Source of the DNA: a virus
Lineage: Duplodnaviria > Heunggongvirae > Uroviricota > Caudoviricetes
Length of the DNA: 13,397 nucleotides
Virus record (IMG/VR): IMGVR_UViG_2671180674_000013
Strand: one strand, 5' to 3'
Below are positions 2,417 through 13,397 of the stretch, piece after piece. The notes below the pieces were generated by a model. That model was given only the letters and a program-made list of their open reading frames with translations, was not told the origin of the DNA and searched no databases. Within the stretch, counting starts at the first letter, position 1. Every line of letters starts with the position of its first letter. A program made the translations under genes and the position numbers.

Positions 2417-2472
2417 AATTGGTACACGTTTAGGTACACGCTATACTGTGGTCCATTAAACGTGTACCAATT
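2417..2472 (+). promoter_or_regulatory. putative int promoter embedded in a 16-bp perfect inverted repeat (operator-like)
   Basis: AATTGGTACACGTTTA (2417-2432) and TAAACGTGTACCAATT (2457-2472) are exact reverse complements. A third GGTACACG copy is at 2433-2440. Between them lie a -35-like TTGGTA (2419-2424), a 17-bp spacer and a -10-like TATACT (2442-2447). The RBS GGAAGG (2475-2480) and ATG 2490 follow. Confidence 0.45.
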
Positions 2473-2489: not shown

Positions 2490-3680
2490 ATGGCGCGTAT
2501 CACACGCCCCCTCACTAACAATGAAATCCTTAAAGCCAAACCCCGTGAAAAAGACTTCACCCTTCATGATGGTGATGGCTTGTTCTTGCTCGTCAAAACC
2601 ACTGGTAAAAAACTCTGGCGCTTCCGTTATCAACGACCGGGAAGCAGCAGCCGCACAAATTTGAGTCTCGGCTCATATCCTGCCCTTACACTCGCAGCAG
2701 CTCGTCAGATACGCGACCAGCACTTAACCACGCTTGCGCAAGGTATGGATCCGCAGCAGCAACAAGAGCAGGCATCAGAACAACGTCAGATTGAGTTGGA
2801 TAGTATTTTCTCAACTGTGGCCGCCAACTGGTTCAAAATGAAGAGCAAAAGTGTCACTGAAGACTACGCTAAAGATATTTGGCGCTCTTTGGATAAGGAT
2901 GTGTTCCCTGCAATAGGCGCGATTCCTGTTCAGGAGATTAAGGCCAGAACGATAGTTGAAGCGTTGGAACCAATCAAAGCACGAGGTGCATTAGAAACTG
3001 TTCGTCGCTTGGTCCAGCGCATTAACGAAATAATGATTTACGCAGTTAACACAGGCCTGATTGATGCTAATCCGGCATCGGGTGTCGGAATGGCATTTGA
3101 GAAACCGAAAAAGCAAAACATGCCGACACTTCGACCAGAAGAATTGCCAAAGCTCATGCGCTCTTTGGTGATGTCGAATCTCTCAGTTTCGACCCGCTGT
3201 CTAATTGAATGGCAACTCCTGACGCTCGTGCGTCCATCTGAGGCTTCTGGCGCTCGGTGGGTAGAGATCGATCTTGATGCCAGGCTCTGGACAATTCCAG
3301 CAGAGCGGATGAAAGCAAATCGAGAGCATATCGTTCCTTTATCAACCCAGGCGTTAGAAATTTTGGAAGTAATGAAGCCTATTAGTGCTCATCGTGAACA
3401 TGTCTTCCCCAGTAGAAATGATCCCAAACAGCCAATGAATAGCCAGACGGCGAACGCTGCCTTAAAGCGGATTGGTTATGGTGGAAAGTTGGTTGCACAT
3501 GGTTTACGTTCAATTGCGAGTACAGCTATGAACGAGGCGGGATTCAATGCTGACGTCATTGAGTCTGCTCTAGCACACTCTGATAGAAATGAAGTTAGAA
3601 GAGCTTATAATCGTTCTACATATCTAGATAAAAAAATAATACTATTTAACTGGTGGGGTGCACAGGTCTATAAGAAGTAA
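2490..3680 (+). CDS. int: P4-family tyrosine integrase (CP4-57 IntA-like)
   Basis: 396 aa. N-terminal MARITRPLTNNEILKAKP...DGDGLFLLV...KLWRFRY and C-terminal HGLRSIASTAMNEAGF...ALAHSDRNEVRRAYNRSTYL match the conserved blocks of P4/CP4-57-type integrases as I remember them. It sits about 180 bp downstream of the ssrA 3' core, as intA does relative to ssrA in E. coli K-12. Confidence 0.9.
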   Translation: MARITRPLTNNEILKAKPREKDFTLHDGDGLFLLVKTTGKKLWRFRYQRPGSSSRTNLSLGSYPALTLAAARQIRDQHLTTLAQGMDPQQQQEQASEQRQIELDSIFSTVAANWFKMKSKSVTEDYAKDIWRSLDKDVFPAIGAIPVQEIKARTIVEALEPIKARGALETVRRLVQRINEIMIYAVNTGLIDANPASGVGMAFEKPKKQNMPTLRPEELPKLMRSLVMSNLSVSTRCLIEWQLLTLVRPSEASGARWVEIDLDARLWTIPAERMKANREHIVPLSTQALEILEVMKPISAHREHVFPSRNDPKQPMNSQTANAALKRIGYGGKLVAHGLRSIASTAMNEAGFNADVIESALAHSDRNEVRRAYNRSTYLDKKIILFNWWGAQVYKK

Positions 3681-3712: not shown

Positions 3713-6349
3713 TTATTCAGTAAATATTACATCATCAATATTAAAAGACACTTTAAAATTAGGGTAGAGTTTCAATATTACCTTTTCGAAAATCTCATCA
3801 TCATCATTTAAATTTCTTGCTCTTGAATAAAGACGGTAATTATCTTTTGTTATTTGTTTAATTTCGATATGACAAGCATCATTACTATCAAAGCCTCTAA
3901 AGAAGGTAAAACTATCCAAACTTACAGCATAAATATTATTCAAGGCATTTTCGTCCTCAAAGAAGTAAGTTAACTTATAATCCTTATAAACTTCATAATT
4001 ATAGTTCTTAACTGAATTTTTATTCACAAATAATATATAATTACTCTTCTCTATATCAGCATCATTAAATTTTAAAAAACGCCCTCCTGCTTTGACACAA
4101 TTGAATAATTGCTGCTTATATATAGATATGATTCCATCTCCATATAGCCCAGCACTTGATAAATATGAAACATCATCAACCACGCCTAAAAACTCACGTT
4201 TTGATGGATAAAAAATTAGTTCACTTGTTTTATGGCATATAGGAAGCTTGGATAAATCAACATTTAATGTACTAACAAGCCATTTATTTAAATGTAAATT
4301 CACATCTATTTTAAAGCGTAATACAATGTTCTTATCCATTGTCGATTTTATAACTTTTCTCGTAACTTCTTTGCTCTTATACTCCAACATCATATCAAAT
4401 TTATCTTTAATTAAATCCACTTCCCTTTTCACTTCATTATTATCATACCCCATAGATGTTACCATTATATCTAATTCAGGAGACTCACACGCTTTAATTA
4501 GCAGGTGATAGTCGTTAGAACTAAATCCCACCACATCGACTAATTTACGCCAGTCGTACAAGTATCTCAGGTTAAACCCTCTACGTTTTACAGCCAAAAC
4601 CAATAATATAAAGACTAATGCTCTTATTGCATAGTGATATTCTGTAACAGTATAGGCCTCACCTTCCGGGAGATTTCTAATTCGTTGTTCATCTATACTT
4701 GCACGAATTCTTTCTTCATAAGAACCAAATAACATTCCATATAACTCAACTTCATCTGTATAATTAGAAAAGATAGCAAGATCGCTCCACAATTTGCTAG
4801 CATTAATTATCGCATCGATCTCCACGTCACTTTTATTGTCAGTTTGAATTGCGCTCCAACGCATCTGAAGAACAGTTAAAACAAACCGCTGAATTTTAAA
4901 TATAACAGAAATAATTTCGCTAGCATTTCTTTTTTCTAAATTCAAATACTTGACACTAAGATGCTTAGTTCCTGCATTAAAGTACTCCCCCCAAAACATT
5001 ATCGCACTGTAATCTAACTCATTGCATGCAGATTCAATCAACCCTTTAATGACTTCATAATAGTCTGCGTTATCATCGTGATAACTCAAATAACTATTCA
5101 AGGTATCTTCATGATTTTTGATAAAAGCATTAAAGTCATCTCTATTTAAAGAGAGTTTTGCTATCTGTATTATAAATTCTAACGCGGCAGTTTTCTTTCT
5201 AAGATTAACATTCAACTCAGAAAAATTATTCATTAACTCATCAATAGAATTTTTTTTCACATCCGAATTATTTAAATATTGATATGACAGTCCAAAAGCT
5301 ATATCAAAAGGATATGCTGAAACATCCCCATTAACTAAGCATGAAAAAACATTAATAGCATTTCTTATTGACTCTCTGTTATTTTCCAAAAGAGCACTAT
5401 ACAGATAGATGACAACCCCATTAATTAATTCATCATAATGATTAATCACTTTAAATTCATTATCTGTTATTAACACACCAACAATCAAAGAAGAAACTTT
5501 CTTTGATGATTTTTTATCCAAAATTTTTTTAGCCGTATAATTAACTTCTATAGTTTTGCTTCCACTACTATGCAGGTTAATATTTGGCACAATAATTTCA
5601 TATTCATCCAATAAACCTTTTATCTTCATTCCATTTAAAAAATTGTTTAGTTTATGGAATTTCTCTAAATCTATGTCAACAGTCAAAACATTATCACCCC
5701 CATATATCCCTATGCTATATGGTTGTTGCTTTTGCATTTTCATTTTGCCATAAGAATAATATCCATTTGGTAAATCTCTAACTAGATTTAAAATCTTATC
5801 ATGTAATTCAGAGTTAGCATCCTCTAACAAGGTATAACCCTTGACAAGACTTGAGCAGTGAGATTGTAAATACTCAACAGCGAAGTTCTTATTACGTGAC
5901 ATGTTAAATAATTTCAAGTATGTTTTAAAATACTTCAAAAGAAAATACATTGATAGTAATTGTGACACCACATACTGAGCAATACCACCACCAAAAACAA
6001 AAAAGAAGAATGAAATTATCAAGGTTGATATTGCATCAATACCAAACTGCACAAGGTTGATTTCATCCAGTATCTTTTTCCTAATATAACTTTCCAACGC
6101 ACGAGGTGAGGATTTATTAACAGCATCAACAGTCACACTCATAAAAGTTAATGACAACGCACTGATTGTACCGTGTATACCTAAGGAGACCCCCCAAGCA
6201 CTAAATATCCAATCAAACCCCAATTTTTTTAAATCACTAGAATTAGAAAACAACCACCACCACTCATTTTTACAAAAAAAAACAAGAATACATAAAGTAA
6301 AAAAAATAAAAAAACCAGAGATATAACAAAACAATCTTTTACCCATCAT
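3713..6349 (-). CDS. large membrane-anchored protein of unknown function; candidate anti-phage defence / abortive-infection effector
   Basis: 878-codon uninterrupted frame. Strongly AT-rich: a few sampled lines give roughly 20-32% G+C, against visibly GC-rich neighbours. The first ~145 residues contain 3-4 hydrophobic helices (LFCYISGFFIFFTLCILVFFC, FDWIFSAWGVSLGIHGTISALSLTFMSV, FGIDAISTLIISFFFFVFGGGIAQYVV). The remaining ~730 residues are hydrophilic and Asn/Lys/Tyr-rich with no canonical Walker A, HNH or PD-(D/E)xK motif seen by eye. AAGGA lies just upstream of the ATG. Confidence 0.8.
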   Translation of the reverse strand: MMGKRLFCYISGFFIFFTLCILVFFCKNEWWWLFSNSSDLKKLGFDWIFSAWGVSLGIHGTISALSLTFMSVTVDAVNKSSPRALESYIRKKILDEINLVQFGIDAISTLIISFFFFVFGGGIAQYVVSQLLSMYFLLKYFKTYLKLFNMSRNKNFAVEYLQSHCSSLVKGYTLLEDANSELHDKILNLVRDLPNGYYSYGKMKMQKQQPYSIGIYGGDNVLTVDIDLEKFHKLNNFLNGMKIKGLLDEYEIIVPNINLHSSGSKTIEVNYTAKKILDKKSSKKVSSLIVGVLITDNEFKVINHYDELINGVVIYLYSALLENNRESIRNAINVFSCLVNGDVSAYPFDIAFGLSYQYLNNSDVKKNSIDELMNNFSELNVNLRKKTAALEFIIQIAKLSLNRDDFNAFIKNHEDTLNSYLSYHDDNADYYEVIKGLIESACNELDYSAIMFWGEYFNAGTKHLSVKYLNLEKRNASEIISVIFKIQRFVLTVLQMRWSAIQTDNKSDVEIDAIINASKLWSDLAIFSNYTDEVELYGMLFGSYEERIRASIDEQRIRNLPEGEAYTVTEYHYAIRALVFILLVLAVKRRGFNLRYLYDWRKLVDVVGFSSNDYHLLIKACESPELDIMVTSMGYDNNEVKREVDLIKDKFDMMLEYKSKEVTRKVIKSTMDKNIVLRFKIDVNLHLNKWLVSTLNVDLSKLPICHKTSELIFYPSKREFLGVVDDVSYLSSAGLYGDGIISIYKQQLFNCVKAGGRFLKFNDADIEKSNYILFVNKNSVKNYNYEVYKDYKLTYFFEDENALNNIYAVSLDSFTFFRGFDSNDACHIEIKQITKDNYRLYSRARNLNDDDEIFEKVILKLYPNFKVSFNIDDVIFTE

Positions 6350-8385: not shown

Positions 8386-8488
8386 ATTCACCACTGTTCA
8401 CCTTAAATAAAAAGATAAGTAATACAGTAAGTTAAATGGTGAACAGTTGAAGGTCTGACTGTTCACCGTCTGTTCACCACTGTTCACC
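8386..8488. repeat. iteron cluster of TGTTCACC octamers (P4 crr-like alpha-binding region)
   Basis: Perfect TGTTCACC at 8395-8402, 8460-8467, 8471-8478 and 8481-8488. Inverted copy GGTGAACA at 8438-8445. Degenerate ATTCACC at 8386-8392. Confidence 0.7.
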
Positions 8489-8754: not shown

Positions 8755-9021
8755 ATGCACACCGCTTTTTCTTCCCCGTCTTCTGCCCCTGCCGCGCCGC
8801 TGATGCCGGTTTCTGATACCGTTCACGAGCGCTTTATCCGTCTGCCCGAAGTGATGCATCTGTGCGGCCTGTCCCGCTCGACCATTTACGACCTCATCAG
8901 CCGGGAAGCCTTCCCGAAACAAATCTCCCTCGGCGGAAAAAACGTGGCGTGGGCGCAGTCTGAAATCACTGCATGGATGGCGGATCGCATTGCCGAACGT
9001 AACCGGGGCTATGACGCATGA
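8755..9021 (+). CDS. alpA: AlpA-family phage transcriptional regulator (MerR-like HTH)
   Basis: The segment [47 protein letters not shown] matches the AlpA helix-turn-helix pattern (RLP.V....G.SR.TIY......FP.....G...V.W...EI..W). GAGG lies 8 nt before ATG 8755. Confidence 0.7.
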
Positions 9022-9148
9022 TGATGGCCGCTCAGCAAAAAGCCCCTTTTTCTGGCTTGCTTCTTTTCGCCGTTTCCAGGTATAGTTTTCCCGCTGTCGC
9101 AAAATCGGCAGCCGGGATTGGCGTCCCGTTTACAACATTGGCGACACC

Positions 9149-9171
9149 GGACGCGCCTTGCGTCTTTTTTT
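9149..9171 (+). terminator. short-stem intrinsic terminator in the leader downstream of the alpA-like gene
   Basis: GACGC (9150-9154) pairs with GCGTC (9160-9164) around a 5-nt loop, followed by seven T (9165-9171). The stem is only 5 bp, so it is weak or conditional. Confidence 0.35.
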
Positions 9172-9374
9172 GTGTCTATGCCTCAGCGCATCCATTTTTG
9201 ATCCAGAGATTTATCTGTCTATGGATCCTTCGTGTAATGGTGGCTCAGGCGGGGGCTTCTCACGAAGCGCCGGTTTCCAATGTTGCCGGTTACGCCAACC
9301 CCGTCTGGGCTACCACCAGTGAAATTGGCGTTTCCAGTGGTAGCAGTCACATGCAAACATTGGAGGTTGCCACT

Positions 9375-9569
9375 ATGGCTACGACCCTCACCCCGTCACA
9401 CCCGCAGTTTGTCTTTGTGTTTGCCGCCGTTCGTCGCGCAGACCGTAAACCCCGTATTTGCATGCTGCGCACCGTTGCCGGTGACGAGCACGCCGCACGC
9501 CTTTCCCTCGTTCGCGATTACATCCTCTCGTTCGCTGGCCGTCTGCCGGTTGCGGAGGTGCGCGCATGA
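9375..9569 (+). CDS. hypothetical small protein (64 aa)
   Basis: Strong GGAGG at 9362-9366, 8-nt spacer, ATG 9375. The longer 9018-start form in the ORF track has non-protein-like composition upstream of this ATG. Confidence 0.5.
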
Positions 9570-10121: not shown

Positions 10122-12455
10122 ATGAAAATGAACGTAACGGACACCGTAAAACAGGCGTGCGGCCACTGGCCGCGCATTCTCCCTGCGCTGGGTGTGAAGG
10201 TGATTAAAAACCGCCATCAGTCCTGCCCGGTGTGCGGCGGCTCCGACCGCTTTCGCTTTGACGATAAAGAGGGGCGCGGGACGTGGTTCTGTAACCAGTG
10301 CGGCGCGGGAGACGGCCTGAAACTGGTAGAGAAAGTGTTCGGCATGACCCCGTCAGAGGCGGCCGGGAAGGTGAACGCCGTGACCGGCAACCTGCCGCCG
10401 GTTTCCCCGGAAGTGACTGCGGCCGCAGAGGCCGAAACTGTGGCCGACCGCAAAGCGGCGGCCGCGCTGGCCGTCAGGATCATGGAGAAAACCCGACCGG
10501 CCACCGGCAATGCCTACCTCACCCGCAAGGGTTTCCCCGACCGGGAATGTCTGACGCTCACCGTCATGCATAAAACCGGCGGCGTGACGTTCCGCGCCGG
10601 TGATGTGGTTGTCCCGCTGTATGAGGATACCGGCACACTGGTTAACCTTCAGCTTATCAATGCTGACGGTCTCAAGCGCACCCTGAAAGGCGGTCAGGTC
10701 AAAGGTGCATGCCATACCATTGAAGGGCAAAAACAGGCGGGAAAACGCCTGTGGATTGCGGAGGGTTATGCGACCGCGCTCACCGTGCATCACCTGACCG
10801 GGGAAACCGTCATGGTGGCGCTGTCCTCCGTGAACCTCCTTTCTCTGGCGAGCCTTACCCGTCAGAAGTCCCCGGCCTGTCAGATTGTGCTGGCCGCTGA
10901 CCGTGACCTGAACGGCGACGGCCAGAGCAAAGCCGCTGCGGCCGCAGATGCCTGTGAGGGCATTGTTGCCCTGCCGCCGGTGTTCGGTGACTGGAATGAT
11001 GCGTTTATGCAGAAAGGTGAAGAGGCCACGCGGAAAGCCATTTATGACGCCATCCGGCCACCGGCGCAAAGTCCGTTTGATACCATGAGCGAAGCGGAAT
11101 TTACCGCCATGAGCGCCAGCGACAAGGCCTTGCGGGTGCATGAGCATTACGGCGAAGCGCTGGCGGTGGATGCGAACGGCCAGCTCCTGTCCCGCTATGA
11201 AAACGGCATCTGGAAAAATATCCCTGCCGCCACTTTCTCACGGAATGTGGCTGACTTATTCCAGCGTCTGCGCGCCCCGTTCTCGTCCGGGAAAATTGCC
11301 TCGGTAGTGGAGACCCTGAAACTGATTATTCCGCAGCAGGATACACCGGCACGTCGTCTGATTGGCTTTCGCAACGGGGTACTCGATACCCAAAGCGGCG
11401 TATTCAGCCCGCACCATAAATCGCACTGGCTGCGCACGCTGTGCGACGTGGATTTTACCCCGCCGGTGGACGGGGAAACGCTGGAGACTCACGCGCCAAA
11501 CTTCTGGCGCTGGCTCGACCGTGCAGCCGGTAAAAACCCACAAAAACGCGACGTGATTCTGGCCGCGCTTTTTATGGTGCTGGCGAACCGTTACGACTGG
11601 CAGCTCTTTCTCGAAGTGACCGGTCCCGGCGGGAGTGGCAAAAGTATTCTGGCCGAAATCGCGACCCTGCTCGCCGGAGAGGATAACGCCACGTCGGCCG
11701 ACATCGACACGCTGGAAGACCCGCGCAAGCGAGCATCCCTGATTGGCTTCTCGCTAATCCGTCTGCCTGACCAGGAAAAATGGAGCGGTGACGGCGCAGG
11801 ACTCAAGGCAATCACCGGCGGCGATGCGGTCTCGGTTGACCCGAAATACCAGAACCCCTATTCCACGCATATTCCGGCTGTAATTCTGGCCGTGAACAAC
11901 AACCCGATGCGCTTCACCGACCGCAGCGGCGGCGTGTCGCGTCGCCGGGTGATTATTCACTTCCCGGAGCAGATTGCCCCGGAGGAACGCGACCCGCAGC
12001 TCAGGGATAAAATTGCGCGCGAGCTGGCCGTCATTGTGCGCCAGCTTATGCAGAAATTCAGCGACCCGATGACCGCGCGCACACTGCTCCAGTCGCAGCA
12101 GAACTCCGACGAGGCACTCAGCATCAAGCGCGATGCTGACCCGACGTTTGATTTTTGCGGCTATCTGGAAATGCTGCCGCAGACCAACGGGATGTTTATG
12201 GGGAATGCCAGCATCATCCCGCGTAATTATCGTAAATATCTCTATCACGCGTATCTGGCCTATATGGAGGCTAACGGCTACAGGAACGTGCTCAGCCTGA
12301 AAATGTTCGGGCTGGGGCTGCCCATGATGCTGAAAGAGTACGGCCTGAATTATGAGAAGCGGCACACCAAGCAGGGGATACAAACCAATCTGTCGCTGAA
12401 AGAGGAAAGCTACGGAGACTGGTTGCCGAAGTGCGATGACCCCACAGCAACATAA
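10122..12455 (+). CDS. P4 alpha-type bifunctional primase/helicase
   Basis: 777 aa, the same length as P4 alpha. N-terminal zinc-ribbon C-P-V-C-G-G...C-N-Q-C-G, a Toprim-like LWIAEGYATALTVH...AADRD segment, and a Walker A GPGGSGKS (from VTGPGGSGKSIL) in the C-terminal helicase half. GC-rich, with iterons following. Confidence 0.9.
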   Translation: MKMNVTDTVKQACGHWPRILPALGVKVIKNRHQSCPVCGGSDRFRFDDKEGRGTWFCNQCGAGDGLKLVEKVFGMTPSEAAGKVNAVTGNLPPVSPEVTAAAEAETVADRKAAAALAVRIMEKTRPATGNAYLTRKGFPDRECLTLTVMHKTGGVTFRAGDVVVPLYEDTGTLVNLQLINADGLKRTLKGGQVKGACHTIEGQKQAGKRLWIAEGYATALTVHHLTGETVMVALSSVNLLSLASLTRQKSPACQIVLAADRDLNGDGQSKAAAAADACEGIVALPPVFGDWNDAFMQKGEEATRKAIYDAIRPPAQSPFDTMSEAEFTAMSASDKALRVHEHYGEALAVDANGQLLSRYENGIWKNIPAATFSRNVADLFQRLRAPFSSGKIASVVETLKLIIPQQDTPARRLIGFRNGVLDTQSGVFSPHHKSHWLRTLCDVDFTPPVDGETLETHAPNFWRWLDRAAGKNPQKRDVILAALFMVLANRYDWQLFLEVTGPGGSGKSILAEIATLLAGEDNATSADIDTLEDPRKRASLIGFSLIRLPDQEKWSGDGAGLKAITGGDAVSVDPKYQNPYSTHIPAVILAVNNNPMRFTDRSGGVSRRRVIIHFPEQIAPEERDPQLRDKIARELAVIVRQLMQKFSDPMTARTLLQSQQNSDEALSIKRDADPTFDFCGYLEMLPQTNGMFMGNASIIPRNYRKYLYHAYLAYMEANGYRNVLSLKMFGLGLPMMLKEYGLNYEKRHTKQGIQTNLSLKEESYGDWLPKCDDPTAT

Positions 12456-12463
12456 CCTCACTC

Positions 12464-12490
12464 AGACCGGCATCAGCCGGTCTTTTCCTT
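12464..12490 (+). terminator. rho-independent terminator after the primase gene
   Basis: AGACCGG (12464-12470) pairs with CCGGTCT (12477-12483) around a 6-nt loop, followed by TTTTCCTTTC. Confidence 0.6.
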
Positions 12491-12507
12491 TCTGACCATT
12501 GCCACAG

Positions 12508-12792
12508 GGTGAACAATCCACTGTTCACCCTTCACCGTATATTCACCCTGTATCACCATGAAATTATTGATAAAAAACCAGAGGTGAACAGTGTGAATAG
12601 TAAAACCTGAAAAAACTTTTTATCCCTCCACCACATCGCCTGACCGGGCGCATCCAGAGCGAGAAAAAAACACAAAGGTGAAGAGTCGACTGTTCACTCT
12701 TCACCAACTCATCACCATTTATCTTTATGATTTAAAATAGAAAATAAGCATGGTGAACAGTGTGAACAGTTAAATGCAAAAAAACTTTTTTT
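12508..12792. repeat. iteron cluster of TGTTCACC/GGTGAACA octamers with A/T-tract elements (P4 ori-like)
   Basis: GGTGAACA at 12508-12515, 12583-12590 and 12752-12759. TGTTCACC at 12522-12529. Near-copies at 12531-12537, 12541-12548, 12677-12684, 12691-12698, 12700-12705 and 12761-12769. Inverted repeat GGTGAAGAGT (12677-12686) / ACTCTTCACC (12696-12705). A5-6CT5-7 tracts at 12609-12623 and 12776-12792. Confidence 0.7.
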
Positions 12793-12858
12793 GAGTATGA
12801 TGTAGCTCTCCATACTTTATGGAAAGATCCAAGTTAGCTGAAAGCCTCACCAAGACAG

Positions 12859-12877
12859 CACGTTAATTCGTAACGTG
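12859..12877. promoter_or_regulatory. inverted repeat (operator-like) just upstream of the terminal AT-rich ORF
   Basis: CACGTTA (12859-12865) and TAACGTG (12871-12877) flank a 5-nt spacer, about 20 nt before ATG 12897. Confidence 0.3.
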
Positions 12878-12896
12878 TTAAGCAAAAGGGAATTTT

Positions 12897-13397
12897 ATGG
12901 GGACTACTTTGCTTCAAGAAAACCATGAAAAAATTTTAAACATACTAAATGAAGCTAAAGATGTGGCGCTAAGGTATTACAAATTAACCAATAAGCCTCT
13001 CGGAATCACTGGAGAAATAGCTGAACATGAAGCTGCAACTCTTCTCGGGTTGTCACTATGTTCAGCACGTCAGTCCGGATACGATGCGACTGAGATTTTG
13101 GACGGGAAAGAATATAGAGTTCAAATCAAAGGTCGATATATGCCTGATCCTAAAAAAGTCTCTGCGAGAATTGGTGCTATTGATATATCTAAGCCATTTG
13201 ATTCTGTTCTTTTAGTTTTGCTTGATGAAAATTATGATGCTTTTGCCATGTATGAAGCATCACGAGATGTAGTAGTCGCAGCTCTTCAAGCTCCGGGGTC
13301 AAAGTCTAGAAATGAGCGAAATCAACTAGGCATAGCAAAATTCAAGTCCATTAGCCGTCTCCGCTGGAGCAAGGTTGCTGAACCTGAGATCCTTTAA
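12897..13397 (+). CDS. hypothetical protein (166 aa), AT-rich accessory gene at the alpha-proximal end of the element
   Basis: Complete frame from ATG 12897 to TAA 13395-13397, with an AGGGA-type RBS upstream. Composition is markedly more AT-rich than the adjacent primase gene. No family recognised. The spaced acidic/basic residues (GEIAEHE...GYDATE...RVQIKGR) are weakly reminiscent of a PD-(D/E)xK-like core, which is speculative. Confidence 0.6.
   Translation: MGTTLLQENHEKILNILNEAKDVALRYYKLTNKPLGITGEIAEHEAATLLGLSLCSARQSGYDATEILDGKEYRVQIKGRYMPDPKKVSARIGAIDISKPFDSVLLVLLDENYDAFAMYEASRDVVVAALQAPGSKSRNERNQLGIAKFKSISRLRWSKVAEPEIL

Follow-up and report, generated by a model that had tools for sequence, protein, structure and literature searches.

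The integrase of phage lambda is hetero-bivalent: its N-terminal domain reads repeated arm sites (P1, P2 and P'1-P'3), some direct and some inverted, that flank the core on either side. Transcription of lambda int comes from pI and pL, without a promoter embedded in the arm, and the number and spacing of the sites differ from those of the locus described here. Satellite P4, whose record (NC_001609) annotates 12-nt 'attP arm sequence repeats', has almost the same arrangement as this locus. In P4, Int and Vis repress Pint, according to the part of PMC7286903 that cites Pierson & Kahn 1987 and Piazzolla et al. 2006, and an IHF site has been reported in the int regulatory region. For KplE1 (CPS-53), Panis et al. 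(2010, PMC2951348) describe an intS promoter that overlaps attL, with IntS and the excisionase TorI both acting as its repressors. In the same work, every integrase tested that is encoded downstream of a tRNA gene, in the same orientation, repressed its own gene (PMC2951348). Binding of arm sites by the integrase with repression of its own promoter is also described for PAI I536, as in P4 and KplE1.

The window, i.e., the whole stretch of 13,397 nt that we analysed, carries what is by its sequence a P4-like satellite prophage at the 3' end of ssrA. The int gene (2490-3680, on the plus strand, as are the attL core, the terminator, the TCCG boxes, the direct arm sites, the promoter hexamers and the Vis-like gene described below) encodes a 396-aa P4-type tyrosine integrase with the Pfam families PF13356, PF22022 and PF00589 (Arm-DNA-bind_3, Phage_int_M and Phage_integrase). 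Downstream of int we found psu, an Ash-family ORF, a DUF5375 gene and the gene of a 777-aa P4 alpha-type primase-helicase. The P4-family context, which had been proposed from the letters alone in a preliminary description of this locus, is thus strongly supported by psu, DUF5375, the alpha-type primase-helicase and the C4 RNA. No deposited phage record contained a close relative of the window Int: the best match was 58.7% identical, and intA of phage phi467 (annotated as a CP4-57 integrase) was about 50% identical.

The left boundary of the element is given by the attL core CGGGTTCAACTCCCGCCAGCTCCACCA (2280-2306), a duplicate of the final 27 nt of the tmRNA gene ssrA that closes with CCA at 2306. 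Nothing else in the window matches the ssrA 3' end, and ARAGORN found no whole tmRNA there. An ORF upstream (948-2147) encodes an integrase of a different family (Arm-DNA-bind_2), which is the last gene of a lambdoid prophage in ETEC1732. The satellite therefore lies in tandem behind another ssrA-inserted prophage, and with two unrelated elements in tandem at ssrA the attL core of the satellite is the duplicated 3' end and not the gene itself. In most E. coli genomes with the satellite, the int region comes directly after an intact ssrA. The core is followed by a strong intrinsic terminator (2340-2377, inverted repeat I2 and a T run) that is kept in all relatives; it is the element's supply for the truncated or duplicated ssrA end. 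The int gene has the same orientation as the target RNA gene and lies directly downstream of its end, with 183 nt between the CCA end (2306) and the int ATG (2490). Panis et al. (PMC2951348) give 80-170 nt as typical of attL.

The space before int also contains a perfect inverted repeat. The left arm AATTGGTACACGTTTA (2417-2432) and the right arm TAAACGTGTACCAATT (2457-2472, minus strand) are exact reverse complements of 16 nt (100% complementary), separated by a gap of 24 nt. The preliminary description had the sequence and the coordinates of this repeat (2417-2472) exactly right, and the extra direct copy of GGTACACG that it placed between the arms is present (2433-2440). No other perfect inverted repeat with a gap of at most 60 nt is as long in the 13.4-kb window, the runner-up having an arm of 11 nt. 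In 300 dinucleotide-preserving shuffles of the whole window the longest arm measured 8-13 nt, and 16 nt was never reached. The exact 8-mer GGTACACG occurs three times in the window, each time within the 48 nt of 2421-2468, for an estimated chance expectation of about 0.4 occurrences on both strands.

The repeat can be resolved into arm-type sites. The first, P'1 (12-mer TTGGTACACGTT, 2419-2430, core GGTACACG at 2421-2428), starts 112 nt past the CCA end and shares the left arm with a -35-like hexamer, TTGGTA (2419-2424). P'2 (12-mer TAGGTACACGCT, 2431-2442, core at 2433-2440) is a direct copy 12 nt after P'1, in the promoter spacer. The inverted site (12-mer AACGTGTACCAA, 2459-2470, minus strand, core CGTGTACC at 2461-2468) belongs to the right arm, which ends 17 nt before the int ATG. 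Finally, GTGGTCC (2450-2456, minus strand) is a decayed inner inverted site, for which relatives have GTATACC or GTGTACC (alignment A1, see below). The order along the DNA is core (2280-2306), sites (2419-2470) and int ATG (2490), hence the sites lie between the att core and int. We conclude with good confidence that a satellite prophage at the ssrA 3' end has in this repeat the int-proximal (P') arm of its P4-type attachment site, with the GGTACACG units as the predicted arm-type sites of the Int N-domain, and that occupancy by Int would shut off the probable int promoter embedded among them. The repeat is not a stand-alone operator: its three sites (ancestrally four) belong to an array of five or six, the rest of which lies at the opposite end.

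The geometry of P4, with distances measured on the int strand of its record, is nearly the same. P2 is 53 nt from the core in P4 and 54 nt in the window element; the core CCA end is 112 nt from P'1 in both; the P'1-P'2 period is 12 nt in both; and the distance from P'2 to the inverted site is 15 nt in P4 and 16 nt in the window element. The P arm consists of two direct repeats in both cases (in ours as read from near-identical relatives). The 20-nt core of P4 ends in a tRNA CCA, that of the window element in the tmRNA CCA. Both elements have the site flanks TTGG...CCAA, a -35-like TTGGnn inside P'1 with TAnnnT 17-18 nt later, and psu, DUF5375, the alpha primase, the C4 RNA and crr iterons. These likenesses contrast with Int proteins that are only 37% identical, with different targets (the leucine tRNA gene leuX in P4, ssrA here) and with different site cores (GGGGCA in P4, GTACACG here). 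The P4 inverted repeat (3926-3915) overlaps the int ATG, whereas the one described here ends 17 nt before it, and P4 has one more annotated repeat within int (3621-3632).

Two other integrative elements are comparable. CP4-57, a cryptic P4-like prophage of E. coli K-12, shares the ssrA target, the position of its intA after a terminator and the layout of the sites. It carries TAGGCCCA twice, 12 nt apart, and then an inverted TTGGGCCTA before the intA ATG (L093 806-860), but the motif is different and about 134 nt separate the ssrA CCA end from the first site, compared with 112 nt here. KplE1 (Panis et al. 2010, PMC2951348) also has int directly downstream of the target RNA gene, in the same orientation, and its promoter among P' arm-type sites. 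It differs by its integrase lineage, a TAAA-containing consensus, and a different arrangement with four P' and five TorI sites. Moreover, negative autoregulation by Int and the excisionase was demonstrated by experiment in KplE1, whereas here it is predicted from the sequence. The feature thus belongs to a known and already understood kind, the P' arm of a P4-type attP with an embedded, probably autoregulated, int promoter.

If the repeat is part of an attachment site, further arm sites should be present on the opposite side of the element. The window ends 3 nt short of the far end, and its last two letters (13396-13397, AA, plus strand) are the first two bases of the far-end 23-mer AATTGGTACACGTTTAGGTACAC. 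This 23-mer, which holds sites P1 and P2, is the same as the 23-mer at 2417-2439 and is seen beside attR in relatives. Inside the window we found neither the far-end sites nor attR, i.e., there was one ssrA-core match and no further exact copy of the motif. We read the right end from KMi029, MSB1_9D and CUVET21; in the closest E. coli right-end matches, ETEC1732 (L007) and strain E2 (L008), the element is broken by insertion sequences. KMi029 is 98.5% identical to positions 12300-13397 of the window and carries AATTGGTACACGTTTAGGTACAC directly after the stop codon of the last gene (L009 15097-15122), with the attR core 54 nt later. The far-end 23-mer is arranged in the same way in MSB1_9D (L010 11074-11099), and it also lies beside attR in Citrobacter (L017), Mixta (L019), Pantoea (L083) and Tatumella (L043). 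In CUVET21, which is of the GGTATAC type, the far-end pair consists of GGTATACG twice. The window element's own P1 and P2 would lie beyond 13397, with TTGGTACACGTTTAGGTACAC as the expected continuation, taken from the 98.5%-identical relative. The attR cores of two of these relatives are degenerate: KMi029 has TTCAGACTCCGCCAGCCCCCAATCATGAT (L009 15174-15200) and MSB1_9D has a further deletion (L010 11155-11175), in place of the ...CTCCCGCCAGCTCCACCAAATCATGAT of attL. Given these degenerate cores, the KMi029 and MSB1_9D copies may no longer be able to excise precisely.

We compared the int-upstream regions of related elements, starting with six diverged E. coli ssrA-to-int intergenic regions that are 76-96% identical (alignment A1). 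Five of the six had GGTATACG in place of the GGTACACG of the window, alike in copy 1, copy 2 and the inverted copy. Those relatives also keep the fourth, inner inverted copy (GTATACC) where the window lineage has GTGGTCC (2450-2456). An intact fourth copy was found in L002, L003, L005, L006, L020, L026, L037 and L083. Since the inner copy has decayed in the window lineage and since about 11-12 nt per site are common to the relatives, the perfection of the 16-nt repeat is specific to this lineage. The layout that had been described from the window alone is thus kept in relatives, with its 11-12 nt per site, but the perfect 16-nt symmetry is not. In about 40 relatives the core motif changed in all copies together (GGTACAC, GGTATAC, GGCCTAC, and others in more distant lineages). 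Relatives have GGTATACG or GGCCTACG throughout, down to the far-end pair in the case of CUVET21, and a Pectobacterium element of a tRNA-targeting lineage (L052, Int 53% identical) has TAGGCATA at both ends.

A wider survey covered 75 loci from other genera, with Int 37-94% identical. In 55 of them we found a direct pair with a spacing of 11-13 nt (almost always 12) at most 140 nt upstream of int, and these loci usually had one or two inverted copies ahead of the start codon. The sites of the surveyed lineages fall into about ten motifs (GGTACAC, GGTATAC, GGCCTAC, TAGGCATA, TAGTTATA, TAGTAGTA, TGTAACA, GGGGCAT, GGGGGCT and GTGAGTAG). In six loci (L024, L028, L030, L046, L047 and L064) the int frame stops after 18-99 codons while the upstream repeats are still recognisable; by their sequence, these appear to be decaying elements.

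This pattern of variation makes it barely credible that the repeat serves to bind a host protein such as IHF, Fis or a global regulator, or that it is a functionless palindrome of chance or relict origin. An IHF site is, to be sure, reported in the int regulatory region of P4. However, no exact IHF consensus was found in 2300-2420, and the motif differs between elements of a single host species: E. coli has both GGTACAC and GGTATAC types, and the occurrence of both classes in this host makes a host factor unlikely. Repetition of the motif at both ends of the element argues against a host factor and against chance alike, and a 16-nt arm was found in none of the shuffles.

If the sites are read by the integrase, the arm-binding domain of Int should vary with the motif. 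The Arm-DNA-bind_3 domain (PF13356) covers residues 8-94 of the window Int (about 2511-2771; E-value 2.3e-23). We used 34 full-length ssrA-type integrases to analyse covariation. Residues 1-95 of the window Int are 85-99% identical to those of the same motif class, but only 58-67% to those of other classes. For residues 100-385 the corresponding ranges are 85-93% and 73-90%. In the whole set, the mean identity of residues 1-95 was 82.8% within and 64.5% between classes, whereas that of the rest of the protein (100-385) was 84.2% within and 82.0% between classes. The covariation points to the N-terminal arm-binding domain of Int as the protein part that would bind the repeats. We also searched for a sharp recombination breakpoint behind the divergent N-domain and rejected it, as no near-identical block was found. 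Compared with GGTATAC-type relatives, the int DNA is 55-72% identical in the part for the N-domain, about 70-86% identical in most of what follows and 64-70% identical at the 3' end. With no near-identical block, a recent swap of modules cannot be claimed.

The same data bear on the other protein for which the repeat could be a target. The preliminary description named an operator or a recombinase arm-site pair, on which a bound dimer would repress or loop the int promoter, and Int and an AlpA-like protein as candidate binders. The element does encode an 88-aa homologue of Vis (8755-9021), which is 70% identical to P4 Vis (tblastn), and P4 Vis is reported to repress Pint in the part of PMC7286903 cited above. 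An operator for this Vis/AlpA-like excisionase, or for another small helix-turn-helix regulator whose dimer represses or activates int, is nevertheless very unlikely. The identity of Vis does not follow the class of the repeats, while that of the Int N-domain does: the Vis of L037 is 90% identical to that of the window, yet the L037 repeats are of the GGTATAC type, and P4, with its 70%-identical Vis, has GGGGGCA repeats. We thus rejected Vis as the binder of the repeats. Half-site centres about 40 nt apart, extra direct copies and copies at the far end do not fit a dimer operator, nor does the conservation of only about 11-12 nt of each arm. Of the two earlier proposals, the arm-site pair is strongly supported by the P4 geometry, the far-end copies and the covariation with the Int N-domain, and the dimer operator is not; of the two binders, Int stands, as its N-domain tracks the motif class, and the AlpA/Vis-like protein does not.

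The TCCG repeats, which do not depend on the class, fit Vis better. A candidate excisionase box (2315-2329) has two TCCGG exactly 10 nt apart beside the core and is invariant in alignment A1. A candidate second box (2388-2411), with TCCG, TCCG and TCCA in exact 10-nt phase directly 5' of the first arm site, is kept in both arm-motif classes. P4 has TCCA/TCCG/TCCA at a 10-nt phase beside its core and three TCCG in the same phase before P'1, i.e., in the same places as here. Calì et al. (2004) are said to have mapped two Vis boxes between core and int, which would make the TCCG repeats the better candidates for Vis. From these sequences, the TCCG boxes, and not the GGTACACG repeats, are the probable target of the Vis-like protein.

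The arm-type sites surround a predicted int promoter. A -10-like hexamer, TATACT (2442-2447), lies 17 nt after the -35-like TTGGTA (2419-2424), and this is the sole sigma-70-like match in 2150-2650, with 9 of the 12 positions. The scan score by itself is at chance level, as 0.9 matches are expected per shuffle. However, 38 of the 39 ssrA-type loci (31 of the 32 distinct sequences) have TAnnnT exactly 17 nt downstream of TTGGTA or TTGGCC, with variable inner bases (TATACT, TATAAT, TAAGAT, TAGGAT, TATCAT, TACGAT and others). A fixed TAnnnT with free inner bases is the pattern expected for a selected -10, which would place an int promoter inside the cluster of arm sites. Support for this putative promoter comes from conservation and not from the scan. 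Transcription would start near 2454. From this position of the promoter, the -35 falls in the left arm, the spacer holds the middle copy, and about +4 to +19 are taken up by the right arm. The overlap of the left arm with the -35-like hexamer and of the right arm with the leader had been recognised before, and both agree with our coordinates.

The position of the promoter also bears on the idea that the repeat works at the RNA level, as a hairpin in a read-through transcript or in the leader of int that would serve as attenuator, processing site or device of translational control. The DNA of 2417-2472 does fold, as RNA, to -27.5 kcal/mol (z-score -6), and where the left arm differs by C/T, the right arm shows the complementary G/A difference. 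Yet with a conserved promoter between the arms the int transcript would hold the right arm only, and the leader from about 2454 is unstructured (z-score -0.12), so that the hairpin is stable only when transcribed from upstream. The strong terminator at 2340-2377 stands upstream of it, no T run follows the right arm, and the stem does not include the ribosome-binding site. The middle direct copy and the copies at the far end, which are unable to pair in such a hairpin, show this base change too. Rfam gave no match at this locus. We consider a role as RNA hairpin very improbable.

With the repeat read as the P' arm, the following mechanism can be proposed. The Int N-domain would bind P'1, P'2 and the inverted site, plus P1 and P2 on the other arm. 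Arm-bound Int would bridge to the core at the ssrA CCA end, which would be bound by the catalytic body, and Int with the Vis-like excisionase, and probably IHF, would assemble the integration and excision complexes. Bound Int would cover the -35, the spacer and about +4 to +19, and should thereby keep RNA polymerase off and repress int. Occupancy by Int would then shut off int transcription, a negative autoregulation that would keep Int low and steady in the lysogen. That Int represses its own promoter is plausible by position and by the precedents of P4, KplE1 and PAI I536. In KplE1, mutations of single P' sites did not relieve repression (PMC2951348). The contribution of each site could, from this result, be small. 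As for the excisionase, in CP4-57, which also uses ssrA, expression of int is reportedly increased by AlpA (Kirby, Trempy and Gottesman 1994). The sign of the excisionase effect hence cannot be assumed.

Several other features of the element were recorded in the course of this analysis. Rfam models matched c4-a1b1 at 9080-9132, isrK at 9093-9170 and the C4 antisense RNA at 9233-9320, i.e., a P4-type RNA immunity system. These C4 immunity RNAs lie within an ORF (9018-9569) that is assigned to Ash by Pfam and is Icd-like in RefSeq. Clusters of TGTTCACC/GGTGAACA iterons occupy 12508-12768, the position of crr, and 8395-8488, the position of ori, and match the 'ori type 1 repeat' of the P4 record. 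P4-like satellites have been reported to carry variable antiviral systems in the int-psu interval (PMC9122126). In this interval the window has an ORF of 878 aa (3713-6349, minus strand) with no Pfam family and a weak match to AbiEi (E-value 1e-3). The E. coli relatives that we examined encode at the same position a restriction endonuclease, SIR2, DUF2326 with an ABC-three-component protein, or a HAD hydrolase. A 166-aa ORF at 12897-13397 (DUF6998 in RefSeq) matched along its entire length the PADLOC model mREase_II (E-value 1e-100), which stands for a type II methyl-directed restriction enzyme. With the crr-like iterons on one side and the far-end Int sites on the other, this ORF marks a second position for cargo, in addition to the int-psu hotspot.

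The classes of arm motif may have consequences for elements that compete for ssrA. Satellites of the GGTACAC, GGTATAC and GGCCTAC classes share the catalytic and core-binding body of Int and the target, but differ in the matched pair of arm sites and Int N-domain. They could be functionally orthogonal, with a single T/C position of the 8-nt core as the discriminating base and the arm module as the determinant of incompatibility. We put this forward as a tentative idea that we think is rather unlikely to hold as a whole. If it were true, different satellites could sit in tandem at ssrA without mutual excision or repression. A contig of Candidatus Pantoea borealis (DKJK01000011.1; L029 and L047) contains two ssrA-type int genes, 13.3 kb apart and in the same orientation. 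The upstream sites of one are of the GGTATAC type; those of the other are of the GGTACAC type, with the second direct site missing and the int ORF broken. Judging from these motifs, the contig holds tandem satellites of different arm classes.

Beyond annotation, the identification of this repeat has little significance. A widespread P4-like group inserted at ssrA keeps the attachment architecture of P4 almost to the nucleotide, despite an Int identity of 37%, another site sequence and another target. The arm sites, the core and the probable promoter of these elements are now located, which is useful to mobilise, stabilise or engineer satellites that carry defence systems. The covariation between the arm motif and the Int N-domain also provides a natural set of specificity variants, with which to study how arm-binding domains read DNA.
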